Part shown: piece by piece, positions 18,989-62,248 of the stretch
Numbering within the stretch: the first letter of the stretch is position 1
Layout: the number at the start of each line of letters is the position of its first letter
From: a virus
Lineage: Duplodnaviria > Caudoviricetes
Reading direction: 5' to 3' (one strand)
Virus record (IMG/VR): IMGVR_UViG_3300021255_004427
Span: 32,001 to 96,000 of that record
Length of the DNA: 64,000 bases
Notes under the pieces: model-generated
Databases searched by the model: none
Seen by the model: the letters and a program-made list of their open reading frames with translations, nothing else
What the model was told of the DNA's origin: nothing
Position numbers and translations under genes: made by a program

Positions 18989-19010
18989 TGCTGTTAGAAG
19001 TAAAAGGTTA

Positions 19011-19041: not shown

Positions 19042-19061
19042 ATATAGTGAGGTAAATGTAA

Positions 19062-27039: not shown

Positions 27040-27091
27040 ATAATAAAGACACCGAGTTTTATGCTCGGTGTCTTTATTATTTTAATCCGCC
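27029..27091. terminator. Perfect 28-bp inverted repeat; core is a probable bidirectional terminator
   Basis: GGCGGATTAAAATAATAAAGACACCGAG-ttttatg-CTCGGTGTCTTTATTATTTTAATCCGCC. Confidence 0.75.
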
Positions 27092-28880: not shown

Positions 28881-28955
28881 GGTGTTGGATTATCTTGTTA
28901 ACAACAGTAATGTACGAACTAGCAAATAAGAACATATAGTTTTGTGGAGGAAATA

Positions 28956-30399: not shown

Positions 30400-33300
30400 A
30401 TGGCTGAAGACAAGCTTTATGAAGAAGCAAATGAAGACCTCAGTGATACACTCATAGATTTTGGCACAGATATAGCCGCCGCAGGTGTAGCGGCGGTTTC
30501 TTTTTATCGTGCTGGCGGAGTGAGAGCACTGTCAAAAAAACTCTCGGATTATAGCCACTCCGGATTAAAAAGAGCTGTTGATGATTTTCGAGCGCTTGAC
30601 TACGATCATATTAATTATCGGACGCTAAAAAAATCATACGAACAGATTCGTAATGGGATGAGAAATTTTAAAGCTCAACCTCATGACAATCGCATTCGCT
30701 GGGAGGCAAGGCCAGGCACGCCCATAGAGCTGATCATGGAAGCTGCAAAGCTTCGAGAGTCATCACCTGTAATACAGGAAAATGCCAGATGGCAAAGAGA
30801 AGTTGTAAGGCGCATACAGAAAACCGCATACAAGAATCTGAGCGCTGCGCTGGGCGCTGCAAAGATAAAAAACAGGGACACGATAAAATTAGCGCAGGCT
30901 CAAATGGCAAAGCTCGTTGCCCATGTGGCCAGCGAAGCAAGAAAAGGACATGTAGATTTTGATACAGCAAGGCTTCAGAAAAACTTTAAGGTAACTGGCG
31001 CGGGCGGAGATTTTTATCAAAAAGTTATTGACACTGCAAAATCGCAGGCTGAAAAATTCTCCCTTAATGCAGCAAAACATAAAGGGAGAACTATTGAAAA
31101 CCAGATAGCCGACAGGCTTGAAGCAGTAGAAACGCTTGAACGGGCAGCCGGAGGCAGATACTCTGGAAATACCCTTCGCGATAAAGCATTTGGCGATGGG
31201 CTGGTAACAATCCGCGACACACTCAGTCATGCAGATAGGTTCAATGACACTGACGGCACCTTATTTATAGGTAGTGACCATTCCGTAAAAGAAAGGTCTT
31301 TTCTAAAGGCGTTACAAGAACTCCATGAAAGAGTAAAAGCTAAAAACGATAAAGAAATGCTTGAACGCTTTGAAAATATCGTTATAGACCCGCATCTACG
31401 TAAAACCACTGATGGGGAAATATATTCTCTTGACCCGCTGTATAAAGCAAGATACAAGGTTCTCAAAAGTCTGGCTTACACTATGCCGGGGAAAATTCTG
31501 AAGCTTGCAGATATGATGATGTCTGAGACTACGCCGGCGTTTTATCAGTTCAAAAAGGGTACGCTTAATCCGGTGCTCGCGGCTTTTGAAGAAGGCAACA
31601 CGACCAAGCGCATCATGAGTGACTACTTCTACATGACCGGAAAAGTATTCCGGTATGATGAAGAAAGCAACAAGTTGCTGGATGAATCCGTAAAAGAATT
31701 AGATGGAGGCACACTCTTTTCCACTAGATTTGCAGGCATGGCAAACCTGTATAAAGACATCAATGGCCTTAATGCTCAGCGCGTAAGACAAGACGGGTCA
31801 ATAAGCAAGATTCTTGATCTTAATGCTGCACCGGGAATGAATCCGTGGGATTATCTGGCTGGATATTTTAGCGGAGAACGGGATAAAAAATATCTACCCA
31901 ACGTCATTAAAGATATCAAGAGTGGGAATCTTTTTTCAACATCTGACGATATTGATGATGTGTATGAAAGATTGTCCAGCTTAAACATCTTTTTAAATAA
32001 GAGCACAAGAGGCTTGACGCTGCCTATGCTCAGTGCTCTCGAAAATGTGGCGAGAGAAACCGCTGCTCAGGACGGTAGAGACGCCCTTGAAATTATCAGC
32101 CTCCTAAGACTAAATAATGGTGAACAAATTCTTGACGGCGTAAAAGCCATGGTTGGAGCTCATGGCGGTACAGATGGCGCGTTTTTGAATAACCGTCTTA
32201 ATCGACTGGTAAGCAAATTCGCACGAAACGAATCCGCAACAAAGGGATCTGTCGAACTTTTAGAAGACATTTCTGGTGCTTGGACTGATGATATTTCCGC
32301 TGCCGGTGGCTTAGATTTTTATGGGCAGCTACAGAGAGAGCTGTCTAAAGAAGCGTTAATGCGTATGGCAGAAAACTCTCGTGACGAGGCCGGCGGCTTA
32401 TACAATGCGATAAAAGGTGTTATTGAAAAAAGCAGCATGTCTCACGCTGACGAGGAAGCCGCAAAAAGACTGGCCTATACGTCAATCTTGGATAATGAAA
32501 CCATGAATGCGTTTACCGGCTTCGGGAAATATCAGCGTAGCGAGTATGATGTTGTCGATCCGATAACCAACCAGTCCTTACTGGAGAGCCTTATCGCAAA
32601 ATATACCACTGTTGCGGGCGGAAAAACTACGCGGGCAGGCGAACAAGATGCGTCCAGGGTTATCCAGGATATGGTTAATGATGGCCATGAATGGCAGATG
32701 CTGCATGCTAATGGACGCAACCATGAGAGTGATATACCCGAGCAGTACATTGAATCCGACTATGCAATACTCCGCAAAAGCTCCGGGCCTTTGGAAATTC
32801 TAAAAGCCATAAATCAATCCATAACGGATAGTTCGTTAGATGCACTCAAAGATGAAGGAATGAACTTCATTAATCAGCTCAAGGCTGGCGGACATGATGC
32901 TGGGAATCTATCCAGAATGACGATGGTTCCGTATTTCTTCTTGCGGCGCTTAGGTGGAGACGATCTGCCTCCTTTCTTACAGTTTTCAAACGAGGCTCTT
33001 GATAGCACATGGGGGTTAACAAAAGCAATAGCTAAAAGAATCGCTCCTGTGGCTATCGGAGAAACTTATCTTGAGTGGGGCGACGATACTGTAGGTGCAG
33101 TTACCGGTGTCAGACCAAGTGCGGGATTCGTAAACACTCTGGATTACATGGATATTGGCGCGAGGACTATGCTGGATATGACCGGGATAGGTGGCTTTCT
33201 TGAAAGCGAATCTTACGTCAATCCTATCATGCAATATTGGGGTGGCCGGGATGGCTATTATGATGCCGATGAAGAACGTGATTTTATTGCCAATGGATAT

Positions 33301-36300
33301 GAAGCGGTAAGGCGCGGGCGTTATTGGTCATTTGGTTCGGTAAATGAGTTCCGTGGTTCGACAGTCGAGTATTATCAGCCAACACTTACCAGACGACTTA
33401 ATAGCGACTACTACAATAAATCATTGTATAGTGGTTATTGGGATAAATGGGGGCATTCTCTGTTACCTACGCCAACAGCACCATTTTCCCCGCTCGTTTA
33501 TTTAATGGACCCGTACTATCTCGAGGAAGAGCATAAGGAAGATCGCCCATACACGGTTTCCGGCACAATGTTTGATAAAGAAACTCCTTGGGGTATCGTC
33601 CTTAATCCTACAATCGGTGAACTTGTAAAACCGGTTGTTAAGATGAACCAGGACAGGCTGACGGATGGCGGGCAAGATGTAAAAGCCATTATCTATGGTA
33701 TAAACCAGCATATCCGTGATACTGCTCAGGGTGACCACGCATACGCCATGGTATTCGACCGCGAACAGATTACCGCCGGCGAATATACTTCATACGCATC
33801 TCCCTCGCTTGGCCAGTATAATATCCGTATTGGTAAGGATCGTGGGGAGCAGATGCATCAGGAGCAGCTTGATGCTCTTGGCGGGCCGATGGAACCAGAG
33901 CGTCGCGAAACTCTTTATGAGGGCGGCGGTTCTGGTGATGGCTCTGGTAGCGGATTAGGATTCGGCGGTTCTGGTGGCGGAGGTTCTTTTGGTGGGCAAT
34001 ATCCGCTTGACCTTTTAGGACAGACAAATCGAAAAATATACGTAGCTGCCGCCCGCAATGAAAACAAAGGCGGCATGATCACCACCGACTATATTCGCCA
34101 TAGTAAAGTAGACGAAATCCTCGGCAACGAAGATATGGGTGACCTGATTAACGCCGGAGCTGGTGGCGATCTTGTTCACGAGACAGCTCAGTCGCTAAGA
34201 TTAATTGGCGGTATCTATGGTTATGGCGCAAACAGAGCGTTTGGATTCGGCGAGCGTGATGGAAAGCAAATTGCAGATGCCGGAGACATTGACTCTTTTA
34301 GTCGTTCATTCTGGGATGAATCCGTTGGTGGTATTGGCGGCGGCGTAGCAGAAATTGGGCGTCGTTTTATCCCGGAATACAGGCGAAACATACGTGTCAA
34401 TCCGCTCTTAAATACGATGCCAGATTGGCTTCCAGAGAAGCTAAGATTCGGGGACCCGTATGCGCAATTGCCTAAAGGAGAGGCTCGTCTTCCCGGCAAA
34501 GGGTATGAAGCGTTAAATGAATTACACCCGGACTCCTATGGAATTTATGGCAGCTACGACCGTTATAAGATTTTGGCTGACGTCGCTCCAAATTCAACAG
34601 AGTTTAAGGTCTGGAAAAAGATTGCGAACGCTACGGTTACTGACCCTGTTCTAAAAAAGGACATGGAAAAAATCCAAGAGCGCGTGAACGAACAAAACAA
34701 ACAGCACGATTTTTACGACTATCGGATTCTCGGTAAAGACGTGGATTATCAGGACGCTATTATCCAAGAGGTCAACAAGGATGGTTCATTCCGCATTCGT
34801 GGGTCGAATAGATTATTAACTCTTGCAGGCATTGAGTTTGATAAAACGACCGCGATGAGTGGGGCTGGTAATCAGATTATGGCCGAGTATTTACATCCCG
34901 GCCAGAGTGTAACCATCGCAACAGATTCGAATGAGTATAACAGAGACAATCCTGACGGTACAAATAATGGGGAAGGCACTGTAAATGCAGCTGTATTTGT
35001 TGACGATGAAAGTGTCAGTGAGCTTTTACTTAATGAACACAAGGACGTAATCAAAAAGAAAAAAGACCATCTTAATGCTGCGGACGTATATGCCCTAACA
35101 AGTACATTTGACCGCGTGCTTGGCGGTGCTGCAGAGATTGTTGCTCATGCCGATCTGCCGTTAATCCATGATCGGTGGTTACGTGTAAGAAGCCCGCTTG
35201 AATCGTATAATGCAGAACAAGTATACGGCACGCCATACCAAACATGGTCAGACGTGTGGGGGACGTATATCCAACCGGCTATGGAGAGGGCAGTGTCGGA
35301 TCATTGGGGTGTAATCCGTGGTGCCGCAGAATGGTTCGCTCTAAATAACTTGCAGGCCAGAGAAGGTATTGGTAAAACAAAGAAAATGCTGCTATCTGGA
35401 GCGGCCGCGCTAATGGATAGAGGGGCGTTTATTGGCAGTAGTATTGCTACGTTCTTCCGTCCTGGTGATGGCGAATTGTTCCAGAAAGGCGGTAAAATAG
35501 GCTTAGGCTTGTCGCTCCTTGGCAATCTGTATACCAGCGCGCAGTCAAGCCCAACAGAGGCAGCCGCGAGCTATGCCACGGTTGGTTGGATGGCTGCAGA
35601 TGTGCTGGATACAGAAAAAGAAAAATTCACCAAAGCGCTTAGCGGTTCTATAGAGAAGTTTTTCCGAAATGAAGAATCGTGGAAGTTTAGAACAAAAGGT
35701 GCGTTTATTGGCGCGGCTGCCGGCGTGGCCATGTCTGGCTTATTTGGCCCATCACTTGAAAGTGGAGAGCGTGCCCATTGGACTCCGGACAGGATAAAAC
35801 AAAAGTGGGAACTTGAAGATTACTTTGACCGTCTGACATATATAAAATATACGGGGCTCTATAACCGCGCAGCAGAACTTGCCAAGAGCGAAGAAGGCAC
35901 GGATGTAAAGAAGATTTTTGATGACTATGAAGAATGGAGCGATTGGCGCCGCGAAATTATGCAGGACTCGGACGTAAACAACACCGAGTTCACCCATCTA
36001 GCCAAGAAGAGAATCCAGCGAGCATTAGATGGTCTTCATGATGAAATCTTCGGCAGTAATGATGAGAATAACCATCGTTTTGAATATAGCAATGGCTTTT
36101 CGATAAACGATCTGCCGGGTGTCCGCAATGGTGTATTCCATTCTGAAGAAGTATCCGAGGAAGAACGGCTTTATACACTGAATGCTTTGGTAACGATGGG
36201 TGTTCGATACAATAAACCGGGCACGTCGCGCACTCAGGAAGATCGTGACATGAGCCAGCTCAGAGAATTTGAGCGCGTGTATGGAACTAAAATTCCGGAC

Positions 36301-37092
36301 TACTATCAGGTACATCACATTGTAGAGTTCTCAGAAAACGGTGCGGATGACCCATCTAATATGATTGCTCTCAACCCGGACGATCATCAGTATATCACCG
36401 AACAGCAAAAGAAAATCTCGGAGGGCGATTTTACTGCTGCTGAAATTGGTGCAAGAACTGCCATGCGTATCGGCGAATATGGACGGGCAGCACTGCTCTA
36501 CAAGAAGGCTGCGGAATCCACTATGTATGGTTTGCGGGCGGATGCTAGGTGGACAGATGTTGTAAAAGCCTTGCCGAAATACGAGCGAGATTATTTCACT
36601 GAGTTCATGCGTGAAAACGATCCTGAAAAGCGCGAGGAAATTCTGCAGACCGTATCGCCATTTTTAAGGCGAGCATTGAAGCAGGTCTGGAAGATGGACT
36701 ACGAATCTGATAAAGGGCCGGACAATGAAGAATATTTTCAGAGTCATAATCTGCCAAACTTCCAGTGGGAAGGGTGGGATCCGGATTCTGACTTGAACAA
36801 GGTAAAAGCAAAGACCATTAAAAACGAAGGCATGCTTTTCTCCGATTTTGGAATATACGAATCTACGTATCGTGACCAAGAAGTTATCAATGCGCCAAAT
36901 CTATCGCCTAAAGGTGGAGACGATCCGATAACAGTACAGGCAAATCTGCAGGCAACTTTGTCTGGTTTGGGACTTGTGGGTGTCGAAGTTTCTGTCGAGC
37001 CAAAGTCCACAAAAGGTATTACCTCGGTAATTAACGTCACGAAGGTAACATCGTATAAGCTGGGAGAAACGGTTGATAACCTATTCTCCTGA
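30400..37092 (+). CDS. Giant (2230 aa) tape-measure-position protein with embedded HNH domain
   Basis: Follows the chaperones; helical and Gly/Ala-rich hydrophobic segments; QVHHIVEFSENGADDPSNMIALNPDDH at aa ~1970-1996. Confidence 0.65.
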   Translation: MAEDKLYEEANEDLSDTLIDFGTDIAAAGVAAVSFYRAGGVRALSKKLSDYSHSGLKRAVDDFRALDYDHINYRTLKKSYEQIRNGMRNFKAQPHDNRIRWEARPGTPIELIMEAAKLRESSPVIQENARWQREVVRRIQKTAYKNLSAALGAAKIKNRDTIKLAQAQMAKLVAHVASEARKGHVDFDTARLQKNFKVTGAGGDFYQKVIDTAKSQAEKFSLNAAKHKGRTIENQIADRLEAVETLERAAGGRYSGNTLRDKAFGDGLVTIRDTLSHADRFNDTDGTLFIGSDHSVKERSFLKALQELHERVKAKNDKEMLERFENIVIDPHLRKTTDGEIYSLDPLYKARYKVLKSLAYTMPGKILKLADMMMSETTPAFYQFKKGTLNPVLAAFEEGNTTKRIMSDYFYMTGKVFRYDEESNKLLDESVKELDGGTLFSTRFAGMANLYKDINGLNAQRVRQDGSISKILDLNAAPGMNPWDYLAGYFSGERDKKYLPNVIKDIKSGNLFSTSDDIDDVYERLSSLNIFLNKSTRGLTLPMLSALENVARETAAQDGRDALEIISLLRLNNGEQILDGVKAMVGAHGGTDGAFLNNRLNRLVSKFARNESATKGSVELLEDISGAWTDDISAAGGLDFYGQLQRELSKEALMRMAENSRDEAGGLYNAIKGVIEKSSMSHADEEAAKRLAYTSILDNETMNAFTGFGKYQRSEYDVVDPITNQSLLESLIAKYTTVAGGKTTRAGEQDASRVIQDMVNDGHEWQMLHANGRNHESDIPEQYIESDYAILRKSSGPLEILKAINQSITDSSLDALKDEGMNFINQLKAGGHDAGNLSRMTMVPYFFLRRLGGDDLPPFLQFSNEALDSTWGLTKAIAKRIAPVAIGETYLEWGDDTVGAVTGVRPSAGFVNTLDYMDIGARTMLDMTGIGGFLESESYVNPIMQYWGGRDGYYDADEERDFIANGYEAVRRGRYWSFGSVNEFRGSTVEYYQPTLTRRLNSDYYNKSLYSGYWDKWGHSLLPTPTAPFSPLVYLMDPYYLEEEHKEDRPYTVSGTMFDKETPWGIVLNPTIGELVKPVVKMNQDRLTDGGQDVKAIIYGINQHIRDTAQGDHAYAMVFDREQITAGEYTSYASPSLGQYNIRIGKDRGEQMHQEQLDALGGPMEPERRETLYEGGGSGDGSGSGLGFGGSGGGGSFGGQYPLDLLGQTNRKIYVAAARNENKGGMITTDYIRHSKVDEILGNEDMGDLINAGAGGDLVHETAQSLRLIGGIYGYGANRAFGFGERDGKQIADAGDIDSFSRSFWDESVGGIGGGVAEIGRRFIPEYRRNIRVNPLLNTMPDWLPEKLRFGDPYAQLPKGEARLPGKGYEALNELHPDSYGIYGSYDRYKILADVAPNSTEFKVWKKIANATVTDPVLKKDMEKIQERVNEQNKQHDFYDYRILGKDVDYQDAIIQEVNKDGSFRIRGSNRLLTLAGIEFDKTTAMSGAGNQIMAEYLHPGQSVTIATDSNEYNRDNPDGTNNGEGTVNAAVFVDDESVSELLLNEHKDVIKKKKDHLNAADVYALTSTFDRVLGGAAEIVAHADLPLIHDRWLRVRSPLESYNAEQVYGTPYQTWSDVWGTYIQPAMERAVSDHWGVIRGAAEWFALNNLQAREGIGKTKKMLLSGAAALMDRGAFIGSSIATFFRPGDGELFQKGGKIGLGLSLLGNLYTSAQSSPTEAAASYATVGWMAADVLDTEKEKFTKALSGSIEKFFRNEESWKFRTKGAFIGAAAGVAMSGLFGPSLESGERAHWTPDRIKQKWELEDYFDRLTYIKYTGLYNRAAELAKSEEGTDVKKIFDDYEEWSDWRREIMQDSDVNNTEFTHLAKKRIQRALDGLHDEIFGSNDENNHRFEYSNGFSINDLPGVRNGVFHSEEVSEEERLYTLNALVTMGVRYNKPGTSRTQEDRDMSQLREFERVYGTKIPDYYQVHHIVEFSENGADDPSNMIALNPDDHQYITEQQKKISEGDFTAAEIGARTAMRIGEYGRAALLYKKAAESTMYGLRADARWTDVVKALPKYERDYFTEFMRENDPEKREEILQTVSPFLRRALKQVWKMDYESDKGPDNEEYFQSHNLPNFQWEGWDPDSDLNKVKAKTIKNEGMLFSDFGIYESTYRDQEVINAPNLSPKGGDDPITVQANLQATLSGLGLVGVEVSVEPKSTKGITSVINVTKVTSYKLGETVDNLFS

Positions 37093-37101
37093 GTAATTTT
37101 T

Positions 37102-37134
37102 GACGACTGTAATCTTGCAGTCGTCTTTTGTTTT
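37102..37134 (+). terminator. Putative terminator
   Basis: GACGACTG-taatcttg-CAGTCGTC followed by TTTTGTTTT. Confidence 0.6.
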
Positions 37135-37147
37135 AGGAGAATAATTA

Positions 37148-40100
37148 ATGGCAAATAACATTTATTCCAATCGGGCGACATCCCGACTTGCAAATAGAGA
37201 AAGACAGAATCGGGCGGCAGAAGACCGTTTAATTAAAAGAAGCAGTCAACAATATTCAGAAGAGCTTAGGCAGTACAATGAAGACAAAAAGGCTTCAAAA
37301 AGTGTGACTGACAATTCGTTGGTGAAGCCGGTATTTCAGCACCCAATAGACTTAGAGATAGAACTTGAGATCTTAAATAACCAAGCGCTGATTCCATCCA
37401 TGTCTAGAATTGCTAATTTTGACTGGGCGGGCGCAAATGCAGTTTATGGGGCGCTCCCAAAGCGCTTTAATGAGCGAGGGGAAGTAAGTACTGAAGTAGC
37501 AAATATATATGAACAAAAATTCCTGCCCGTAGTGGGAGAGCTGTTAAATAGCGTACAATCCCCTACGCAGTTAAGCACGGTGCAATCTGGTGATGAATTA
37601 TTAAAACGCACAATCATTCAGGATGCCCAGCTTAACTATGCCTTCAATCACAATGCCCTTGTAAAAACGAATATGCAAAAACAAAAGAAAGTTGTTGAGC
37701 ATATCCAGAAGACCGGGAAATTTATTGAGTATGACCTCGAGGGTATTGGAAACGATATAACCGAATTCTCCTTTATTGAATTTGACACCAAGGCCAAGAC
37801 CGGCACGCCGGTAAAGAAATGGATGACCGGCCTTACTGGTGTTAATCCGGAAACCGCAAAAGAACTTCAGTCATTAATTGACGATTATAGACAGTTCGGT
37901 TTCAAACATGGTGACCAAAAAAATGGTGTATCCGAAGCAGATCGTTACAAACTGGAAACCATTGCTAAGCGTGGGCATAAAAAGACGGTTGTAGAAAATA
38001 AGGATGGCATTAACATCCTTAAAAGTTATGCTGTTAACGAAGACGTTTTGATTCCACAGGTCGAAGATTTAGAGCGCGGTCTGCAAGGGCTCATTGATGA
38101 CTATAATGTAATCCACAGTGCAAAACCCAAAACATATAGTTTTGACGGGAGACAGTACCAGCTCTATCGCGACGACTATATGATGCTACGCATGCTTTAC
38201 GACGCAAAAAAGCGCAATATAGCCCTGTCAGGTCTCAACGTTTTTGGTTACGACAACGCCCAGATAAACCGCAAATTCAACCAGGCTACTGGTGACGCAT
38301 ATTTGCTATGGAAGCAGATAACCGGCACGGGCGATATGAATGACGCATTCCTCATTATGGATAAAACAATGATCCATCGTGAGAAAAACGACCCCGCAAA
38401 AATTCTGGCAAATGTTAATGGCGCTCTCGAAGATATTGTGGCGAACCCAGGGAATACATTAAATACATCCCGGGGGCAGCAGGCAAGATACGGTAATACG
38501 ATTGACCCGGCAACCGGGAAAATCATAAATGGCCCCGACCGTTACCAGCAGATGATGCATGAGCTGTTTAATGGCGTAATCTATGCGCAGCACGCAGCTT
38601 TCTCGGATACAGCTATTCAAGGTTTCACAACTATTGATATGCTGAAGGATAGCTCTTTTACGGCTACAGTAAAAGATGAGAACGGGAAGAACGTAGCAAA
38701 CCCTGATTATATATTCAGCAATAGCAAAATGGAACCCGAAAGACTCGCTAAGGCCGGGGATATCTTTTATGTCCAAAAGGGTGTTATGGGGAATACCGCT
38801 GCTGGCGGCATGAGCTTCGTTGTTGACGGATTATCTGGCGATATAAGATTTGACGGAGTAAGATTTGATGCTCAGGGAAAACTCCTGACAAAAGAGAATC
38901 TGGTAGCACCGGCGCTAAAGAGTAATACTTATGCCATGCTTGCTGGCGTAAAAGAGATATCTGTTGACAGCGCTATCGGAAGAGAATATGGAAAAATCAA
39001 AGGCACGGCCGGGGCGGAAAATCTCGTAGCCTTGATGTTCTATCAGTATGGCGAGGCATATAAAGGAGACGCAGAAGGAAGATTAAAGGACTTAAATGTC
39101 TGGGTAGGCACAAAAACCGAAGCGGAGGAATTTCTCGGTTCTAACCCGTATGTAGGTTCTGTTGTCCCTCAAAGCGCTCCAAAGACACTCGAAGATTGGC
39201 GCACCATATCTTCGACAAACGGGCATATTGATACAACAGGAGTGTCTCCCTCTGTAAATGAAAAATTTGGCAAGAGGCATGAAGATGGCTCTATAGCAGA
39301 CTTAAGTGAGGCTGTAGAAGAATCTAATATAACAAAGCAGCGGGATTCTGCAAGTAATTGGCTCCGCAGCCTCAATTATAATAAGGCGAAAAACGCACTG
39401 AAATATATAAAGGCTCTAAATGAGGAAAAAGAGAACCGCAAAGCAGGGGGGAGTATTTCAGAGTTTGCAGTTCAGCGCCTTAAAGAAGTTGCGGGAGATC
39501 GTAAAGCCCTGGAAAAAGCATATGGAATGCTTAAACCGTACGAGGACGCCGAAGAAGTATTAACACAAACTATTGCTAATGCGACTTACTCAGCAGGATA
39601 TTTGGATAAAGTAAAAGATATTCTGGAAGAGTCTCTGGAGTTGACCGATAAGCTGGCTGGCGCAAATGCGAAAAAAGAAGTTAAGGATCAGTATTTTGTA
39701 CAAATCTACGAACATGCGCTGAGTGTATTAGCTGAAGAAACTGAAGGGGAGAAAGCTAAAGCACAGGCCGGCAAACAGGCAGCAGGTGGGCACCCAAAGG
39801 TCGATAATGAACTCAGGACTTACACACCGGCTCAGGCATATGGACAAACAGCCGAAGGACAGCTTAGAACTGGCAAGCAGGCTCGATCTATCTTGTTGGA
39901 TATTTCCAGTATCATGCCAGAAAACCGCAGTCATAATGCGGGGCTCAACAGTCAAACCGGTACATTCTTTGAGATTGATCCAAACGAAACTGAGCCTCAC
40001 TGGGGGGCCAGACTGTCTAAGCTCCTCGGAACGGAGAATAGGGCTGTGGCGGTGCGCAAACTAGGCGCTCTTATTTCTAAGCAGTATGGAGAAATTAAAG

Positions 40101-46456: not shown

Positions 46457-46465
46457 ACTTTACAA

Positions 46466-46499
46466 AAGACCAGGGCAATAGTTTCTGGTCTTCTTTTTT
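46466..46499 (+). terminator. Putative terminator
   Basis: AAGACCAG...CTGGTCTT followed by T-run. Confidence 0.55.
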
Positions 46500-46522
46500 A
46501 TAGAAAACTCGGAGGAAATAAA

Positions 46523-49500
46523 GTGGTAACTGATTTTATAAACCCCGCAATCGGCTTGCCGGATATGGGGGATTTTTACTACGATGCACCTGATCAGGAA
46601 TCGTATTTTGGCGAAATGGATAAAAACCTCAACTCTGTTAGGCGTGACAGAGCCAATTCTGCGGAAGCGTACAGATTCTATCAGGAAGACCCTCCGCAGC
46701 CCGGCGCCGATGAACAGGGAAAAGTCTATGTTTTTGACGTAGAACTTGGCGCAAAAGGTATCGGCGATGACAGTGAAGAAGTGGCTGGCATTAAAGTAGA
46801 CGACGGCGACACGCTTGCAATCCCCGTCGGAAGTATTCATCCAGCCGACGAGAAAAGTGAAAAATACCTGAGCTATATAAAGGGGTATACCAGCACTCAT
46901 AATAGCAGTGGAGAGGCCACGGCTGTAAATGTTCGTTTTGCGGGACTCGATACAAAGGAATTGCCCCATTATCGCAAGATTGGCATGGACGAGCTCAACC
47001 AAAAAGAGCTGTCTCAGGTAGACCTCGGCACAGCCCTTGGGAATAAAAATTATATGGTGTCCAAGTACAAAAGCTGGATGCAGACTCGCAAAACATTGGA
47101 CAAAGCTTACGACGGCTACAAAACCAAAGGCACGTTCTTTGACTATGCGCAGCCCAGTGATAGTGTTGTAAATGTGGTAAAACTGGACGACGATAAATAC
47201 CATCAGTATTTTTCTGATGGTACAAACGGCTATGTCCTTGTAGCAAATGCAACAAATGATTACAGTCCGGAAACCATTGCTGATGCAGGCATTGGTCGTG
47301 ATGTTGTAGTAAATGCGCTAAACGATGCAGAAGCTATGCGTATTGTGGTGGATGGTACGCAGATTACCCGTGATGGCGGCAACATCAAAACAATGTTTAA
47401 CACAGAACTGTACGGATCGGGATTCGAAAATGAAGCAAGACGCCAATTAGATATGCTTTTTGACTCCTATACAAAACACCAGCGCCCCGGTTTTAATACA
47501 TGGGGGCAGGATGCGTATGGCCGCTGTATTAGCGCTGTCTATGTCAAAATTAAGGGCCAGTGGATTAACCTTAACAAACTGGTTATTGCCGATACAAACA
47601 TGACGGAGATTAACAAGTATAATGATGGCGATCAGGCTTCCACAGCAATTAATCTGGATAGCTACGAATATGACAAGAAAGCCTATGCCGATAGTTTGTA
47701 CGCCGACACGAGCAAGTTTGACGATCGTGAACAGGTGCAGAAACAGATTTTTGGACAAACCTGGAAAGCCCTGAAAGATTGGACGGTTACAATTGGTGAT
47801 GTGACGCTTTTTGTACCGCCGACCAGTATTCGCACACTTACACAGACTAAGGCTGAAAGAATGCCGCTTATCCGTGCAAAAGGGTCTATGGCAAAAAGCT
47901 CGACAAAGAACCAGCGAATCATTGAGATGGACTTGTATTTCAATGAAGACCGCGGCATTAACGGCTATGAATATAAAACCAATACCCGTCCGGATAATAA
48001 AGGTAAGAATGTCACATACTGGATGAATGGGCTGCGCGCGCTGTATGCTCAGTTTCGTGTAGCACCATTTTTGCCAATAGAAAGCTATTACATCAATACT
48101 GTGTTAGGTGTAGATGCAGTTTCGCTTGTGAGTTTCTCCTGCGAGACGGTTCCTAATTTTCCTAAGCTGATAAAAGCCACAATCCAGTTGTCTGAGTTTG
48201 AGTATCGCATTTATATGCCGGAAATCCCCTTTGATGACGGCAGCGATGATGATACGGAGGTTCGTAATTACTTTAGTAAGCAGATAAACTATCCGCTGTT
48301 CCGCTACTATTACCAACGACTGCTGCGGAACGGCGAAGAGTTGAGAGGGGTTAAATTCCTCGACAAAAAGTACATCACCAGCACCTTTGGCAACAAAACA
48401 TGCCTTGTCCCAGCTAACTTCGTAGATCCGTACATTCGATTCTATGTGCCGAACAAAAATCAGTTGGAAAGATTAAAGAAGGCAAAGCTTGAACGCATGG
48501 CTCGCCCCAACACAGTTCGTGACATAACGAAGACTGAGCTTAACTTTGCCGATGAGATGGCAAAAGTAAAAAATGAGATAGATTATATTAATACCTCACA
48601 GTCGCCACTCGATAAGGTCAATGATTATTTAAAGGCGCCGGAGCTCGATGGCTATGTTCTTGCTGGCGTTAACAACCGGATGGTGATTGGTAAAGCTGGC
48701 GCGGCCGGCACTTTTGTACCGGATGAAGAGAAGACAAGAGAATTAGAAAGCCTGCTTAGTGAGGCAACAACCTACTATGAAGTGGGACTTACTTCTTTAA
48801 AAAGAGAAGATGGCCAGCCTCTTTGCCAAAAACAAGGGGCAACAACATTCGGTCCGTCTAATTCTGACGGTTCTATTTACGGCGCCTACTTTTCAATCAA
48901 TGTTGAATATCCGGATATATCCGAAGACTCTCTTAACAACTTGAGGACATTATCTTCGATTTCAGGCGTTGCCTCTGCGGACGAAACCTTTGTTAACAGA
49001 AACCTTCGTCTTAGAATGTCTGTAGACTTTGGGGAGAGTAATCTGACGTATGCGTCAAATTTGTTAAAAGGCGCCGCGCTCGGTAAGGGCGAATCCTTAT
49101 TCTACTTTGATGTTAATGCAGACTCGAGCTTCTTAAATTTCCTTGCCGAAGTAAACAATAAACAGGGGGTAGGTGGTAACGAAGACGCTAACGGCGCAAA
49201 AGCGTTAGTTGATTTTGTAAGTTCTGCTACATTAGAATTTGAGCCGTATAATGATGATGAAGACTTCTTGGTAGAAGCTATTCATATCAACACCAGCAAC
49301 ACATTTGCTCAGGTAACTCTGCAGGAAACGTCAGGGTATGCTCCTCAGTATATGGGAGGAACAGATGTATCTCTTCAGATTAGTATGTATACGCAGAGTA
49401 AAAAGGCAGCCTCTGCAATTAATGCGTTGCCGCATGTATCGGCGGAATTTGCCCGCAATTATCGATTGGTTCTGGCAGCGTGGCCATTAAAAATCGAAAC

Positions 49501-52500
49501 GGAGTTTACTAAGCTGTTTGGCATCACCGATGTAATGGTGGAAGCTTGTGAAGTGGATACGGTTCCGAATTATCCTGGGCTTTATCATATTACAATGAGC
49601 CTGGTATCCGTAGACAGGTCCCTGCGTAATAGAGAATCTCTACAACAGAAAGATATGAAAAACTTCCACAACCTGTCTGTGCAGGGTGTCGCTCGTGAAC
49701 GCAGATGGTCCTACGCGCAGATGACAGAATATCTTTCTGAGGCAGAATTGTATCCGGATCTTGAATTACCAACTCTTAAGGAGCTGGCAGAGAATGGTTT
49801 TAATTTTATCCGCTACTCAAATACAAAGCGTGTTTATCCTGATCCGGATTTCTACTTCACGTACAGCTATGTCTTGATGAGCCAGCTTATTCGAGAAGCT
49901 GTGCTTAATTCGCTTAACTCCGATGCGTGCCAGACGGTAATTAAAGATACGACGGGCAAGGAAATCAGCGGCAGTCTTGCAAACCGCATGGGCTCCTGGA
50001 ATCGAAATTATGAATTATCCAGAGGGTGGGATAAGGACCTTAGTTCCGTATTCCAGAATGACGACCTTATTACCGCCCGCATTATTTCTGATTACGAGAA
50101 TGTTGCTGATGACGAACGCGATGAAACATGGACAATAGCACCAAATGTGAAGGTGGCCATGATGGAAAAGCGTATGCTTAACCGTATTAACGATTCTTCC
50201 AAGCAAAGCTATCAGGAAAAGAACGGAGCAAATATTCATTCGTCTACGACATATGATAATGCGGATGGAATAAAGAAACCAGTGACTGGTCAAACAACCG
50301 AAACCGATAAAGACGGCAATGTGACCGAGTTAAAGGATGCGCCGGACAATACCGGTAATACTGGATTGTCAAATGAAGACAATAAGGGAAATCTCGAAAG
50401 GTTAAAGCAGCAGCAACAGGATATCAAAGATGAAAAAGCTACAGGTAAATATTCCTCTGCCATGTATAAAAAGAACGAGGAAATTTCCAATCGTATAAAC
50501 GGTGTTATTAAACATTATCAAAACACGTCGATTGACGAAATGGGCGGCAGTATTGGAGATGCCGTACAGCAACTGGTTGCTGCGTTCAATACTTGCCCCA
50601 AATACAATAACTCGCACATAGAAGGCGTTCCAGGACAAGGCAGGAGCGAAATACCAAACGGGTTGTTTGGTAAAATCCCCGCATTCTTGGATGCGGCTGC
50701 TGATGCCATTTGCAGCAATAACGGTGTTGACTACAGTGAAGAGACGGCAGACCATTTAAACGCCGCCGCTACGGCATTTGGAGGTACAGTTGCAACATCA
50801 ATGGGTGTCGGTGCAGCGATAGGTTCGGTTGCAACACCAGTGGGAACAGTAGCAGGTGTAGCAGCTGGTGCTGCAGTGGGAACAGTAGCTGGTACAGTAG
50901 CAGCTGTCGCATCAGTAGCGACAGGAGCGCACTCTAAAAATGAAAAAGCTCCGTGGAGACACAGCACTAAGTATCGCGGGCGGCTTAAAATCGATGGCGT
51001 AGAACAAGTGTGGGCTTTCGATGACAAGGATCCGAAAAAGGATTACAAAATCGAAATGATTGCAAAGAACGCTACCGAGTTTGGGTATTTTAACTTCAAG
51101 TTCTATACACCGGAAGAATTAGAAGATCGGTTTGGTTACTATGGCCATATCGAACGGGACAACACGGTAGAAAATAGCGAAACTGTTGTAGAGGCTCATC
51201 CTCGTGTTGGAAAGTACTTGGCTGACCCGTATTATCGGTATGCAAACGCAGAAGTGCAAGAAGCGTATGTTAAGAAGTGCCTAACTGATTATGATTTTGC
51301 CAAAAAAGCATTCCTTAGAATCTGTATGCTGTATATGCAGGTGTTGGTAAGCTACAGCATTTTCCCGTCGTTCTCTTATGACGTAATGCGGGATGCTTTT
51401 ACCAATGAAGAAAATATGCGAAAAGTTTTGGCTGGCGTTGAAGAACTGCGAGCAAAGAAAGCTGCAGAGGAAAGAACTAAATCCGAAACGCAAAAACAGT
51501 ACGGCACGTCCAAGAAGTATTCTCAGAAAAAACAGCCAGGAGAAGTGAAAAAGGATGCTGCCAGCGTAGTATCATATGTTGGTGATGCCATCCCTGAGGG
51601 AGAAAAAGGCAAAGAAGCAGAAGGTAAGGATACAGAAGCCAAAGAAGGGAACGCACAAGAGAATAACGGCGATAAAAAATCGAGTACAGACAAGGCTGCT
51701 ACCGAGCAAGCCACGACAGATTCTGCCAATGCTAAAAAGACGGCAGCGCTTAATAAGTCGTTATCGGATTATGCCAAGAAGATTAACGAGAACAAAGAAG
51801 CTATGGACAATGGCAAACTGTTCCTCATGTGCGCCATGGGTGTTGTCGATGGAGATAAGAATTTCCTCAAACTTCTTCTTAACAGAGAATACGATTCCTT
51901 GAATGCAATCGCAATGGCAGCATGTAGCGGAAAAACGTCTCCAAATAAGAAGGATGCTACGTACGAAACGCGCCTTCGGAGCTTTATTCGGGCATTGGCC
52001 GGTGAAAATGTTATTGACAACTCGTTGATTGGTTCTGGTGAAACTGAGGCACCGGCAGCCGTTTTAGGGGAGAATAACTCCCGTTATAACTGCTCGGCTG
52101 CTGCTGAAGACCCGACCATGTATATGGTGCACAGCTTCTATGATATGGTCGTCCATGATTGCCGTGGGAGAATGCTTCGAGCCTTCCCAACATTCTATAT
52201 GTTTTTCATTGATGAAGGACGCAAGATTGGTAAGTTCAGGCTTCATGACAACTTCTACAACATAAATGCAATCTCCAGTATAACGATTTCAAAGTCACGC
52301 AAAAACCCTACTGACGTAGCGGAAGTCGTAATGACCAACTTCTTTAATACATTTACAACAGAAGATGAAGATTTGAATATGAACTATTCGACGAATTTTA
52401 CGGATGTATTTAAATCTTTGTGGCTGCCTACCTTGCAGTCCTATGCTGTAGATGAAGAAGAGCGCCGCACAAACGCCCCTAAGGCTGAACGATTCAGGTT

Positions 52501-55291
52501 ACGACCGGGCGCAAGGGTTCATATCCGTATTGGCTATGGCGCCGATGCTTCTCATCTGCCGATTAGTTTTAATGGGATGATTGCGGAAGTAGATAACGGC
52601 GATGTAGTAAAACTCATTTGTCAAAGCGATGGCGGAGAAATCTGTAAGCCCATTCTTCTAGAAAAGAAAGCGTCAGAACTTCAGGGGATTGATGGCGTTG
52701 GTTGGTCATCCGTTGCTGAAAACGGCGATACCCCGAAGAGTATTATGCGTAGCCTGATGTGCTTAAAAGGCGGGCTTATCAATTCCTATATGCATGATAA
52801 GGGCTGGGATGACGCAGCAAATCTTATTGGTACGCCAATAAACCCGCTAGGGATTTATCACTTCGGTAATCCCGACATGGCATATGCCGGAGACCCCGAA
52901 CCAGTACAAAACATCTTCGAGATTGGTCTTAAGGCAGGTTCGGACCGATACCTAAACGTCTCGGGGGATGACCATAAAGAAGGCGTGCTTGAGGGAATGG
53001 CAAATACCTTTAAAGGCAAGGACGAGGATATTGCAACGCACCTGCAGTTCGAAGTGTTCGGTAAAACTGTCTGGGATGTAGCAAATATCTGCCGGAGTAC
53101 CGATCCGGAATACTACGCGGCTGTTCGGCCATTCCATATGCGTTCTACATTATTTATCGGGCGCGCGCATGACTACTATGCTTATGATTATGAGCAAAAA
53201 GGCGGCACATGGATTGAAAAGCGCAAGCCATTCCAGCAGGCGCATATCTATACGTCACTCTCTGATATTATTGACAATCGGCTGGCGGTTTCTCCAAAAG
53301 ACATCAAGACGTGCGCCATTGGCATGTATGAAGTAGAAGGTTTTATGAATGCCAAGGTACAGAAGAAAACCGACCCGCAGTGGGTGGATGCGGCAATATA
53401 TCCGGAGTACCAGAAAACAATGTATGTAGATACAAAACTCTTCGGTGAAGCATCTAGAAAGCTTGGCATCATAAGTGATGTTACTGGGTGGTTTACCAAT
53501 GGTGTATTCAATAGCTGGCTGGATCGTGGTTTTGACAAGGAGGGCGATGCGCAAAATCATCATGCTCTCGCAGTAAAGATGACCATTAGTGCCCTTAAGG
53601 ACGCGATGAAAGAAATGTATCAAGGGAATATTGTTGTTATTGGCGACCCAACAGTACAGCCTAACGATCGCATAATCCTAAACGATACATACAATTACAT
53701 CAACGGGCAGTGCCTTGTCCGCGATGTAGTTCAAGTATTCTCCAGTGAAAATGGTTTTAGAACAGTGCTTACACCGGATCTCATCACCACACAGGTGGGG
53801 GATGCGTCTGCTGGGGAATCTAAAAATCAGTCCTTTGGCTGTCTTGGTGTAAATACTGTAGTTGGCACACTGGGCGCGATTTGCGGAGCGAAGCTTATGC
53901 AGGGGGCAGCATCAGGATTGTTTAAAAGCCTGCAGAGCATAAAAAACAGCGAGAATGCTGTAAAAGTTGGTAACTTAATCAAAAGCACAGGCTCTGCTAT
54001 AAATGAAAGCAAGGTTGTGCAGGTCGGTAAAAATGTTCTTGGTGGGTTTTCGAAATTTGGCAATGCTTTAAGTAAGATTGGAAGTGTTGCTCGTGCAGTT
54101 TCAACTGTAGCCAGTGGAGCTGAAGCAGTAGCTGGCGCAGTGGCCGGCGGCGCAGAGGCTGTAGCCGCTGCGGTCACGGCTGGAGGCGCGGCAACGGCGG
54201 CGGCAATTGCTGCTCCACTTGTTCCGGTATTTATATTGGGGCTTGGTGCCATAGAAGATATTGTGGCAAGTAAATTCAATAGCAGGAAGACGCTGGTAAT
54301 ATTCCCGTTAATGAAATACAACAAGCCATATGTTGGCGGAATTGATGGCCACGTTGGTTCTGTGTACGGAGCACCAAACTTTGGATCTGAAGATGCAATA
54401 CAGTCTATATTTACGACGCTGTCGAATGCAAGCAACTACCCCTATTTTTCGAAAGTGGTAAACGCCCTGTTCGGAAAAGACGGTATTATGGATATTCATC
54501 AGAGCTTTGGTTTGGATGAGTGCCAGAAGATTGCTAACGATGAAGGTCTTGCGCAAACTGCATATCGCCAAATAAACAATAGCCAAATAAACAACTTCTC
54601 GAAAGCATCTTTTAACCCGCTTAAGCCGCGCATGTCTGTACGGAGTAACAATGCCATTCAAAAAGCAAAAGCCCTTTATGGCGTAACCGGAAAAACTCCT
54701 GACGATATAAATGCGGATACAAAGATGAAGGAAATGAAGAGCGTTATTCATGACGAGACATTGAAACAATACTTCACTAATGGGTTCTTCCGTGTAGCAG
54801 CACACGAGAAAGGTTTTACAGCAGATATCAGTGACAAGATTGAATGTATCTGTATTAAAAATCCAGACAGTGAAGAATACTACTACATTAATGCTATCCT
54901 GGACAGTAATGGGTGCTATGACATACCATTTGTACACAAAGAAGCGGCGGGAGTCCTGCATGATATCATTGTGAGGTCGTTTGTTTTTATGGCTGGTACA
55001 GAACAAGAACGCGATGCATATAAATGGTATGAAGACAATAAAGGGTCATTCATAACACTGACTTCGGCCTTAAAGTGTGGCTCGTCCAAGAATTATGAAT
55101 CCACAGGCTTCTCGTTTGTATTAACCGCCTCGGACGATAAATCTCAAAAGGCGCTTTCTAGTGCTATTGATTTTATCAATCGCCAAATGGCGGAAACGCA
55201 TAATAAGATGGAGGCTGTACCAGAGGCAGTAATGACTAAGAAGGAAAGTGGCCGAGATGTATTTATTGTAGTGCATCCGCCACAGAGGTAA
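46523..55291 (+). CDS. Giant (2922 aa) baseplate-hub-like protein with N-terminal thermonuclease (SNase) domain
   Basis: DDGDT, VRFAGLDTKE and DAYGRCISAVYV...NLNKLV SNase motifs; GNIVVIGDPTVQPNDRIILND...VRDVVQVFSSENGFRTVL hub (gp27/gpD-like) pattern near the C-terminus. Confidence 0.65.
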   Translation: MVTDFINPAIGLPDMGDFYYDAPDQESYFGEMDKNLNSVRRDRANSAEAYRFYQEDPPQPGADEQGKVYVFDVELGAKGIGDDSEEVAGIKVDDGDTLAIPVGSIHPADEKSEKYLSYIKGYTSTHNSSGEATAVNVRFAGLDTKELPHYRKIGMDELNQKELSQVDLGTALGNKNYMVSKYKSWMQTRKTLDKAYDGYKTKGTFFDYAQPSDSVVNVVKLDDDKYHQYFSDGTNGYVLVANATNDYSPETIADAGIGRDVVVNALNDAEAMRIVVDGTQITRDGGNIKTMFNTELYGSGFENEARRQLDMLFDSYTKHQRPGFNTWGQDAYGRCISAVYVKIKGQWINLNKLVIADTNMTEINKYNDGDQASTAINLDSYEYDKKAYADSLYADTSKFDDREQVQKQIFGQTWKALKDWTVTIGDVTLFVPPTSIRTLTQTKAERMPLIRAKGSMAKSSTKNQRIIEMDLYFNEDRGINGYEYKTNTRPDNKGKNVTYWMNGLRALYAQFRVAPFLPIESYYINTVLGVDAVSLVSFSCETVPNFPKLIKATIQLSEFEYRIYMPEIPFDDGSDDDTEVRNYFSKQINYPLFRYYYQRLLRNGEELRGVKFLDKKYITSTFGNKTCLVPANFVDPYIRFYVPNKNQLERLKKAKLERMARPNTVRDITKTELNFADEMAKVKNEIDYINTSQSPLDKVNDYLKAPELDGYVLAGVNNRMVIGKAGAAGTFVPDEEKTRELESLLSEATTYYEVGLTSLKREDGQPLCQKQGATTFGPSNSDGSIYGAYFSINVEYPDISEDSLNNLRTLSSISGVASADETFVNRNLRLRMSVDFGESNLTYASNLLKGAALGKGESLFYFDVNADSSFLNFLAEVNNKQGVGGNEDANGAKALVDFVSSATLEFEPYNDDEDFLVEAIHINTSNTFAQVTLQETSGYAPQYMGGTDVSLQISMYTQSKKAASAINALPHVSAEFARNYRLVLAAWPLKIETEFTKLFGITDVMVEACEVDTVPNYPGLYHITMSLVSVDRSLRNRESLQQKDMKNFHNLSVQGVARERRWSYAQMTEYLSEAELYPDLELPTLKELAENGFNFIRYSNTKRVYPDPDFYFTYSYVLMSQLIREAVLNSLNSDACQTVIKDTTGKEISGSLANRMGSWNRNYELSRGWDKDLSSVFQNDDLITARIISDYENVADDERDETWTIAPNVKVAMMEKRMLNRINDSSKQSYQEKNGANIHSSTTYDNADGIKKPVTGQTTETDKDGNVTELKDAPDNTGNTGLSNEDNKGNLERLKQQQQDIKDEKATGKYSSAMYKKNEEISNRINGVIKHYQNTSIDEMGGSIGDAVQQLVAAFNTCPKYNNSHIEGVPGQGRSEIPNGLFGKIPAFLDAAADAICSNNGVDYSEETADHLNAAATAFGGTVATSMGVGAAIGSVATPVGTVAGVAAGAAVGTVAGTVAAVASVATGAHSKNEKAPWRHSTKYRGRLKIDGVEQVWAFDDKDPKKDYKIEMIAKNATEFGYFNFKFYTPEELEDRFGYYGHIERDNTVENSETVVEAHPRVGKYLADPYYRYANAEVQEAYVKKCLTDYDFAKKAFLRICMLYMQVLVSYSIFPSFSYDVMRDAFTNEENMRKVLAGVEELRAKKAAEERTKSETQKQYGTSKKYSQKKQPGEVKKDAASVVSYVGDAIPEGEKGKEAEGKDTEAKEGNAQENNGDKKSSTDKAATEQATTDSANAKKTAALNKSLSDYAKKINENKEAMDNGKLFLMCAMGVVDGDKNFLKLLLNREYDSLNAIAMAACSGKTSPNKKDATYETRLRSFIRALAGENVIDNSLIGSGETEAPAAVLGENNSRYNCSAAAEDPTMYMVHSFYDMVVHDCRGRMLRAFPTFYMFFIDEGRKIGKFRLHDNFYNINAISSITISKSRKNPTDVAEVVMTNFFNTFTTEDEDLNMNYSTNFTDVFKSLWLPTLQSYAVDEEERRTNAPKAERFRLRPGARVHIRIGYGADASHLPISFNGMIAEVDNGDVVKLICQSDGGEICKPILLEKKASELQGIDGVGWSSVAENGDTPKSIMRSLMCLKGGLINSYMHDKGWDDAANLIGTPINPLGIYHFGNPDMAYAGDPEPVQNIFEIGLKAGSDRYLNVSGDDHKEGVLEGMANTFKGKDEDIATHLQFEVFGKTVWDVANICRSTDPEYYAAVRPFHMRSTLFIGRAHDYYAYDYEQKGGTWIEKRKPFQQAHIYTSLSDIIDNRLAVSPKDIKTCAIGMYEVEGFMNAKVQKKTDPQWVDAAIYPEYQKTMYVDTKLFGEASRKLGIISDVTGWFTNGVFNSWLDRGFDKEGDAQNHHALAVKMTISALKDAMKEMYQGNIVVIGDPTVQPNDRIILNDTYNYINGQCLVRDVVQVFSSENGFRTVLTPDLITTQVGDASAGESKNQSFGCLGVNTVVGTLGAICGAKLMQGAASGLFKSLQSIKNSENAVKVGNLIKSTGSAINESKVVQVGKNVLGGFSKFGNALSKIGSVARAVSTVASGAEAVAGAVAGGAEAVAAAVTAGGAATAAAIAAPLVPVFILGLGAIEDIVASKFNSRKTLVIFPLMKYNKPYVGGIDGHVGSVYGAPNFGSEDAIQSIFTTLSNASNYPYFSKVVNALFGKDGIMDIHQSFGLDECQKIANDEGLAQTAYRQINNSQINNFSKASFNPLKPRMSVRSNNAIQKAKALYGVTGKTPDDINADTKMKEMKSVIHDETLKQYFTNGFFRVAAHEKGFTADISDKIECICIKNPDSEEYYYINAILDSNGCYDIPFVHKEAAGVLHDIIVRSFVFMAGTEQERDAYKWYEDNKGSFITLTSALKCGSSKNYESTGFSFVLTASDDKSQKALSSAIDFINRQMAETHNKMEAVPEAVMTKKESGRDVFIVVHPPQR

Positions 55292-60500: not shown

Positions 60501-60501
60501 A

Positions 60502-62245: not shown

Positions 62246-62248
62246 GGG

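Follow-up and report, generated by a model that had tools for sequence, protein, structure and literature searches.

RNA polymerases (RNAPs) delivered with the virion are known from phage N4, whose enzyme has a T7-like fold, from PhiKZ-like phages, in which a multisubunit enzyme is carried in the head, and from crAss-like phages. Among the latter, phi14:2 gp66 is a giant protein of the virion that is ejected and contains a two-barrel RNAP internally. To our knowledge, none of the RNAPs described so far has an exonuclease partner. Since 2024, one siphovirus with an RNAP in its tape measure has also been known (PMC10770324), namely Thermus phage P23-45, whose gp96 is a tape measure of 5002 amino acids (aa), the N-terminal portion of which constitutes a virion RNAP of the two-barrel kind (Chaban et al. 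2024, PMC10770324; PDB 8H2M/8H2N). Pre-early genes are transcribed by this RNAP, among them one that encodes a second RNAP not carried in the virion (PMC10770324). Here, we describe three consecutive giant open reading frames (ORFs), P0001, P0002, and P0003, found in the virus record IMGVR_UViG_3300021255_004427. We propose with moderate confidence that this trio is a tail block characteristic of its lineage and that P0002 is a tail-carried multi-enzyme protein, comprising a DEDDh exonuclease-like domain, an RNAP, and a shared C-terminal module, whose virion location, ejection, and enzymatic activities we infer. The lineage may carry its own transcription enzyme in the contractile tail.

The window, i.e., the whole stretch of 64,000 nucleotides (nt) that was analyzed, comprises bases 32001-96000 of a 224,101-bp record, which is classed as linear and estimated to be a 95% complete virus genome. 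The trio and the genes directly 5' of it are as follows (positions are those of the window unless stated otherwise):

28944-29405, + strand: tail-chaperonin homologue of 153 aa (blastp against 0305phi8-36 gp143/gp144, E 1e-6 and 5e-5)
29413-30396, + strand: tail-chaperonin homologue of 327 aa (blastp against gp143/gp144, E 3e-16 and 1e-10)
30400-37092, + strand: P0001, ORF of 2230 aa
37148-46456, + strand: P0002, ORF of 3102 aa
46523-55291, + strand: P0003, ORF of 2922 aa with a GTG start

P0001 and P0002 are separated by 55 nt and P0002 and P0003 by 66 nt, and further upstream, before the chaperonin homologues, are tube-like genes and a tail sheath of 1014 aa. A preliminary description of this DNA had reported three consecutive giant ORFs of these sizes after chaperones, which was confirmed; all three lie on the + strand, and the genes before them are chaperonin homologues. 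Its expectation of a single tape measure gene at this place does not hold in this lineage, since three giants after the chaperonins are normal in 0305phi8-36, Edson, ME3, and 19 IMG/VR contigs.

Jumbo myophages of the 0305phi8-36 type have a conserved block for the tail interior and baseplate hub, and the 25-kb trio is this block. In 0305phi8-36, the order is chaperonins gp143 and gp144, gp145 (1930 aa), gp146 (2537 aa, 'hypothetical tape measure'), and the hub gp147 (1903 aa), and according to the annotation of the record gp145, gp146, and gp147 were all recorded as virion proteins by mass spectrometry. The hub's C-terminal part, used as a tblastn query, identified hub proteins of 0305phi8-36 (Bacillus), MTATph1 (Moorella), Edson, KLEB27-3, and WH1 (all three Bacillus), and Acinetobacter phage ME3. 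The synteny survey of relatives which the preliminary description had proposed bore out the trio order: apart from 0305phi8-36, three giants follow small chaperonin-like genes in Edson and ME3 in the same order as in the window, and the succession of a P0001-like protein, a giant, and a hub occurs in 19/19 IMG/VR loci found with the P0002 C-terminal alignment. The IMG/VR contigs with the trio are 108-247 kb long in 18 of 19 cases, the remaining one being 33 kb. KLEB27-3 and the contig-end fragment L004 show a giant and then the hub. In locus L003, the P0001 homologue, including its HNH domain, is encoded in two ORFs (1419 aa and 885 aa; L003:1395-8522) preceded by one chaperonin homologue, and an extra chaperonin pair lies immediately 5' of the P0002 homologue, which is followed by the hub; this giant additionally carries a helix-hairpin-helix (HhH) motif (PF00633). 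The two chaperonin homologues of the window are 53-57% identical to their counterparts in L003. By megablast, the region had no match among 50,697 GenBank phage records. In Moorella phage MTATph1 (L002:8265-15621), the tape-measure position is taken by a 1309-aa ORF, which is separated from the hub by a transposase gene and then small ORFs; the giant gene appears to be interrupted or replaced, and a DxDGD motif was not found there.

Residues ~1400-2950 of P0002 are predicted to form a single-chain beta-beta' two-barrel RNAP with an intact active-site signature and, presumably, activity, an assignment made because of the fold matches together with the invariant catalytic residues. Two modules can be delimited:

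41345-43219, + strand: predicted beta-like part of the RNAP, containing the first double-psi beta-barrel (P0002 aa 1400-2024)
43754-45871, + strand: predicted beta'-like part of the RNAP, containing the catalytic double-psi beta-barrel together with a long helix resembling the bridge helix (P0002 aa 2203-2908)

When P0002 residues 2050-3102 were searched exhaustively with phmmer, 57 relatives were obtained, about 25 of them 2600-3450 aa long. The signature R-x-P-x-x-Y-x-x-S followed by D-x-D-G-D, which reads R2464-Q-P...D2502-K-D-G-D in P0002, is invariant in alignments of 18 and 27 relatives, with an RxP-to-DxDGD spacing of 38 aa in nearly all family members. In the 27 full-length relatives, K1691, E1697, K1698, H1819, R2464, P2466, D2502, D2504, G2505, and D2506 are invariant, of which K1691, E1697, and K1698 form a (R/K)K-x5-EK motif with the two basic residues of the second (beta-type) barrel; R1417, E1515, K2338, K2357, G2737, and K2785 are further invariant positions of the same alignment. 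The catalytic residues of both barrels remain constant down to 17-20% identity. The motif also passes the [RK]xPx{20,100}DxDxD filter of Supplementary Data 4 in PMC10770324.

Structure prediction and Foldseek, proposed in the preliminary description and run for the RNAP part, recovered a beta/beta' RNAP fold. AlphaFold modeled residues 2050-3102 with a predicted local distance difference test score (pLDDT) of 70.2 and a predicted TM-score (pTM) of 0.64, and residues 1400-2599 with a pLDDT of 83.6 and a pTM of 0.81. Against the PDB, the two models gave at least 290 and at least 268 Foldseek matches at E<1e-3 (best E 8e-8, probability 1.0), and 50/50 of the top 50 matches listed for each model were RNAP beta' chains. 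A wide VIA-align search agrees on the RNAP beta/beta' subunit fold, and the nearest ESM Atlas cluster by shape consists of viral proteins with both PF00562 (Rpb2_6) and PF00623 (Rpb1_2) (TM 0.42/0.53, 623 residues aligned). At the sequence level, phmmer with P0002 and profiles of alignments A1 (RNAP motif) and A2 (DEDDh) found nothing meaningful among PDB sequences, and tblastn with both halves of P0002 found no match in the 50,697 GenBank phage records.

These data also bear on what the enzyme does. The two-barrel enzyme, coupled to the DEDDh domain as replicative polymerases are to an exonuclease, might not be a DNA-dependent transcriptase and might instead prime, copy, or repair nucleic acid at genome entry, with primase-like, RNA-dependent, or DNA-synthesizing activity; we regard this alternative as very improbable. 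Transcriptases, i.e., the PhiKZ and AR9 non-virion RNAPs (nvRNAPs) and cellular beta and beta' subunits, rank highest among the structural matches and also outnumber all others, and the invariant beta-like residues of P0002 stand in the same order as the active-site residues of bacterial beta.

The second predicted enzyme of P0002 is located near its N-terminus:

37715-38617, + strand: putative DEDDh (DnaQ-like) 3'-5' exonuclease-like domain (P0002 aa ~190-490), identified from motifs and weak profile matches

The motifs are FIEYDLEG (ExoI), NVFGYD (ExoII), and HAAFSD (ExoIII). D196, E198, D369, H482, and D487 are invariant both in 24 and in 27 relatives of 14-99% identity; D405 is invariant as well and N364 nearly so. 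Family members match phrog_403 and phrog_192 'DNA polymerase exonuclease subunit' (three each, best E 1.8e-4), and in Pfam three members weakly matched RNase_H_2 (E 0.025) and one matched DNA_pol_B_exo1 (E 0.003). An ESM Atlas feature search with the DEDDh part was uninformative. The profile matches are weak but agree in direction, and we rate a DEDDh fold for this region as probable.

Both enzyme signatures recur in two cultured jumbo phages with Bacillus hosts, in the proteins that occupy the tape-measure position:

L025:7238-14785: Edson GAKEdson_0920, 2515 aa, annotated as hypothetical or structural only, with NRYPTIN...D(H/Y)DGD and DEDDh motifs
L024:7449-14753: vB_BauM_KLEB27-3 gp034, 2434 aa, annotated as 'structural protein', with NRYPTIN...D(H/Y)DGD and DEDDh motifs

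The NRYPTIN...D(H/Y)DGD motif closely copies the beta' signature NRAPTLH...NADFDGD. Both proteins are encoded directly 5' of the hub and contain DHDGD or DYDGD, respectively, and the ExoI/II/III motifs. They are too distant to be detected by tblastn with P0002; hhalign of the 27-member P0002 family against them extended over 2188 columns with a probability of 96.6 and E 4.9e-10 and identifies them as full-length P0002 homologues with the same motifs. In the searchable literature, we found no paper describing an RNAP in tail proteins of this lineage, Edson and KLEB27-3 included.

Apart from gene position, the relation of P0002 to gp146, which runs through Edson, is confined to the C-terminus:

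46085-46456, + strand: hydrophobic Gly/Ala segment (P0002 aa 2983-3003) and C-terminal end module, recognized by hydropathy and conservation

The end module is the most conserved part of P0002 in alignment A1 and in the full-length alignment, and many phmmer matches cover it alone. The place of P0002, one gene away from the chaperonins and followed by the hub, is that of gp146, the assigned tape measure, an assignment which rested mainly on tail length (Hardies 2007, PMC2147016). In gp146 (L001:9185-16798), no DxDGD, RxP, or DEDDh motifs are present, and BLASTP of P0002 against it found nothing; hhalign of alignment A1 against gp146 showed a weak C-terminal likeness only (E 0.09). Edson and gp146 share only the C-terminal ~160 aa (blastp E 2e-5). 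Because gp146 matches Edson there only, the C-terminal hydrophobic segment and end module are, as judged from these alignments, the common denominator of the proteins in the tape-measure position; in gp146, the enzymes seem to have been lost or replaced. We do not claim gp146 as an RNAP relic: hhalign of the P0002 family against the three Bacillus proteins sets RxP/DxDGD opposite gp146 residues 2006-2059 at a probability of only 35%. In a three-way Bacillus alignment, gp146 reads TNEPDEV...FDQASP opposite the motif.

Another protein of this position, ME3_36 (L028:9459-14270; 1603 aa, annotated as hypothetical), is encoded between a gp145-like protein and the hub and contains REP...DHDQD. It is shorter than P0002 and has no recognizable ExoI motif, and hhalign between ME3_36 alone and the P0002 family set the motif in register but did not reach significance (E 0.5). 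In BFVD, the P0002 RNAP model is matched by the model of an ME3 protein at E 2.1e-5 and, best of all, by a protein from a gut virome that bears the name 'Minor tail protein' (E 2.8e-9).

That gp146 is found in the virion without these motifs demonstrates that a structural role in this position can exist without catalysis. P0002 could on this basis be a purely structural tape-measure or tail-interior protein, in which the polymerase and exonuclease modules persist as inactive relics and structural mass. Relics would not be expected to keep the catalytic residues of both barrels and five DEDDh residues invariant in 27 relatives at fixed spacing, and the same motifs are retained in Edson and KLEB27-3; we therefore consider this explanation decidedly unlikely and continue with P0002 as a predicted enzyme.

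The closest known system to P0002 is P23-45 gp96 and not the crAss-like phages with which the preliminary description had compared the trio (PMC10770324). In both P0002 and gp96, the RNAP is encoded in the tape-measure position and a hydrophobic segment is present. In contrast to gp96, whose RNAP is N-terminal, the P0002 RNAP is C-proximal and a DEDDh-like exonuclease occupies the N-terminus; gp96 continues into a long tape that contains metallopeptidase and membrane domains, whereas P0002 has no peptidase family match in Pfam; and P23-45 is a siphovirus, whereas the P0002 lineage has a contractile tail. The P0002 enzyme is nearer to beta/beta' and to the PhiKZ/AR9 enzymes than gp96 is. The PhiKZ/AR9 RNAPs themselves (PDB 7OGP, 7S00) consist of 4-5 separate polypeptides and are head-packaged, whereas that of P0002 is one chain fused into a tail-module giant. 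The crAss-like gp66 resembles P0002 as a giant protein with an internal two-barrel RNAP and differs from it in belonging to a podovirus, in being cargo of the head or muzzle, and in its YonO/QDE-1-like clade; crAss proteins gave only weak BFVD matches to the P0002 model (E 0.03 or worse). With 0305phi8-36 (Thomas 2007; Hardies 2007, PMC2147016), the locus shares its gene order, with P0001 corresponding to gp145 and P0003 to gp147, whereas gp146 is tied to P0002 by position and, through Edson, by the C-terminal ~160 aa only. Furthermore, gp147 has peptidoglycan hydrolase domains where P0003 has a staphylococcal nuclease (SNase) domain, and gp145 is without HNH. The sole RNAP listed for 0305phi8-36 is a separate YonO-like one (Iyer et al. 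2021, PMC7824862).

The first giant, P0001, aligns with gp145 in five collinear BLASTP segments (E 5e-26 to 5e-9) and is homologous to CDS0026 of Moorella phage MTATph1 (E 6e-55). We assign it by homology as a gp145-type virion structural protein. Two features were located in it:

36232-36408, + strand: HNH nuclease domain (P0001 aa 1945-2003), from Pfam PF01844 and PDB Cas8f-HNH matches
35701-35757, + strand: Gly/Ala-rich hydrophobic segment (P0001 aa 1768-1786), from a Kyte-Doolittle scan

PF01844 matches residues 1967-1998 with 25.8 bits against a cut-off of 21.4 bits (E 1.2e-5), and PDB Cas8f-HNH chains match the domain at E 1.4e-4. Six IMG/VR loci (L005-L010) retain the His-His...Asn...His core VHHIVEF...SNMIAL..DDH, with 75-100% identity. 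The domain is part of a ~145-aa insertion that is absent from gp145 and MTATph1 CDS0026. It is confined to the close subclade L005-L010, the L003 homologue also aligning across the region, and within the subclade it evolves at about the same rate as the flanking sequence. The HNH domain, counted by the preliminary description in the enzyme set of the trio, is accordingly to be regarded as a real domain and, as far as alignments indicate, a subclade-specific insertion rather than a family feature. An intein was considered and dropped, the translation showing no Cys/Ser...HN-Cys/Ser/Thr boundaries.

The third giant, P0003, belongs, judging from its alignments, to the gp147 family of baseplate hubs (T4 gp27/P2 gpD type), as the preliminary description had indicated in naming a hub. 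BLASTP against gp147 gave E 8e-67 over 799 columns (gp147 residues 838-1560) and two further segments, and phrog_20474 matches the stretch 2172-2627 at E 1.7e-178. The gp147 protein is related to T4 gp27 (PMC2147016). The following parts of P0003 were delimited:

52139-54403, + strand: conserved hub core (P0003 aa 1873-2627), from the gp147 alignment and phrog_20474
46775-47557, + strand: putative SNase-like domain (P0003 aa ~85-345), split by a ~190-aa insertion, from motifs

The SNase signatures are DGDT (94-97), RFAGLDTKE (138-146), and DAYGR (330-334). D96, R138, D143, T144, E146, and R334, invariant or nearly so in 16 hub homologues, are the equivalents of D21, R35, D40, T41, E43, and R87, the catalytic and Ca-binding residues in SNase numbering. 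Pfam SNase was matched weakly by 5/16 hub homologues (best E 0.005), and the top three ESM Atlas feature clusters for the region carry PF00565 (0.89-0.90). The domain is widespread among the hubs of the clade, and the hub of the BtI1 prophage, a relative of 0305phi8-36, was already reported with a staphylococcal nuclease domain (Hardies 2007, PMC2147016). Two Gly/Ala-rich hydrophobic segments lie in the hub core (aa 2437-2459 and 2533-2585), so that the Kyte-Doolittle scan found such stretches in P0001, P0002, and P0003 alike, in agreement with the preliminary description. The four enzyme signatures it had named, HNH, DEDDh, RNAP, and SNase, are real as well, with HNH above its Pfam cut-off and the other motifs invariant or nearly so in relatives.

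Several neighboring genes were recorded besides. An RNA ligase gene (24658-25806, + strand; phrog_968, E 4.5e-57) stands among the tube-like genes of the tail structural module. The ORFs at 20100-22169 and 25821-26636 (+ strand) match phrog_9206 'major head protein'; from their position and the 'tail tube paralog' annotation in 0305phi8-36, they are more likely tail-tube paralogues, and the PHROG label looks misleading. Just past the hub region, 59171-63028 (+ strand) encodes NUDIX, phrog_19305, NMN adenylyltransferase-like, phosphoribosyltransferase-like, and NAD synthetase proteins, i.e., an NAD+ salvage/synthesis cluster; NAD+ systems of this sort in gut jumbo phages are reported in a 2024 paper (PMC11662467). 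A promoter and terminator scan 3' of the hub gave nothing beyond chance. Between the tail-tube genes and the chaperonins, a 436-aa ORF on the opposite strand (27077-28387, - strand) matches Pfam Rep3_N (plasmid replication initiator WH1) at E 2.5e-5, above the cut-off. This single ORF is the sole basis for the term phage-plasmid used in the preliminary description, which is unsupported for a linear, ~95% complete 224-kb jumbo phage; partition genes were not searched for.

Delivery of P0002 with the genome is a reasonable inference because mass spectrometry has verified as virion proteins both gp145 and gp147, which are homologues, and gp146, which is the counterpart by position. We propose that the two upstream chaperonins would help to build the three giants into the tail and that, upon sheath contraction, P0002 would exit the tail along with the DNA, its hydrophobic end joining in a membrane conduit. 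Its polymerase would then transcribe the first genes of the entering genome with no need for the host RNAP, as shown for P23-45 gp96, until a second candidate polymerase encoded elsewhere in the genome takes over. The exonuclease might process DNA or RNA 3' ends at the entering genome, and the HNH domain of P0001 and the SNase of the hub might be virion-borne nucleases acting on host or extracellular DNA; both suggestions are speculative. A two-polymerase scheme fits an ORF of ~1100 aa outside the window (genome positions 16394-19726, - strand; L026:2895-6194), which carries the only other [RK]xP...DxDGD of the genome (KYP...DRDGD) and is a candidate second RNAP by motif only; the adjoining 622-aa ORF has an HHH_3 motif (E 4.3e-7).

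P0002 could instead be an active late intracellular enzyme, encoded among the tail genes and left unpackaged, with P0001 (gp145 type) or another protein as the true tape measure. In agreement with this, the enzyme is largely globular in the models, unlike classic extended helical tape measures, and since a chaperonin homologue also precedes the P0001 homologue in L003, P0001 may be the chaperoned lumen protein. On the other hand, the position between the chaperonins and the hub is conserved in every relative examined, the C-terminal hydrophobic segment and end module are common, via Edson, to gp146 with its verified virion location, KLEB27-3 gp034 is annotated as structural, and the L003 chaperonin pair immediately precedes the giant; moreover, a late-made, unpackaged RNAP would have no obvious role. 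An unpackaged enzyme thus appears unlikely, and we retain the tail-carried one.

Several observations nevertheless weigh against a tail-carried, ejected multi-enzyme protein. A folded polymerase of ~1500 residues (~170 kDa) cannot sit folded in the lumen of the tail tube, a puzzle that P23-45 also poses. The only protein in the gene position of P0002 verified by mass spectrometry, gp146, is the one without the RNAP and DEDDh motifs, and what it shares with Edson is limited. Whole P0002 has no Pfam, PHROG, or PDB sequence match, and Foldseek superposes no more than the cores, which keeps its TM-scores low (0.12-0.21). Across the whole genome, Pfam RNase_T had no match, nor had Pfam SNase (PF00565), P0003 included, and no significant result came from comparing the DEDDh alignment with E. 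coli DnaQ by hhalign. The candidate second RNAP (16394-19726) had no Pfam, PDB, or phage-database match beyond its motif.

The preliminary description knew of no account of such a combination, which holds in part. The trio as such and the fusion of SNase to the hub (BtI1, PMC2147016) are already known, and so is the concept of an RNAP fused to a tape measure. By contrast, we appear to be the first to describe the HNH insertion and an architecture of DEDDh and beta-beta' RNAP that occupies the tape-measure position throughout a broad lineage of myophages and occurs in cultured Bacillus phages as well.

A more far-reaching possibility, advanced tentatively and with less than even confidence, is that the 'tape measure' of the whole 0305phi8-36-like superclade is an ejected beta-beta' RNAP and DEDDh machine delivered by the contractile tail, in Edson, KLEB27-3, uncultivated phages, and possibly ME3. 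The exonuclease would ready the entering DNA end or single-stranded promoter elements, the HNH and SNase neighbors would complete an injected toolkit, and 0305phi8-36 would represent a secondary loss.

Virion-delivered RNAPs let phages begin transcription without the host enzyme. If the proposal made here is true, it would sharpen the question of how a folded enzyme of ~1500 residues is stored in a tail or passed through it. It would also alter how the 'tape measure' is annotated in cultured Bacillus phages, so that the idea is open to direct laboratory tests. Jumbo phages with contractile tails, forming a large and widespread lineage, would then use a different virion enzyme, in which beta and beta' are fused, which is nearer to the RNAPs of cells and of PhiKZ-type phages, and which is joined to an exonuclease.

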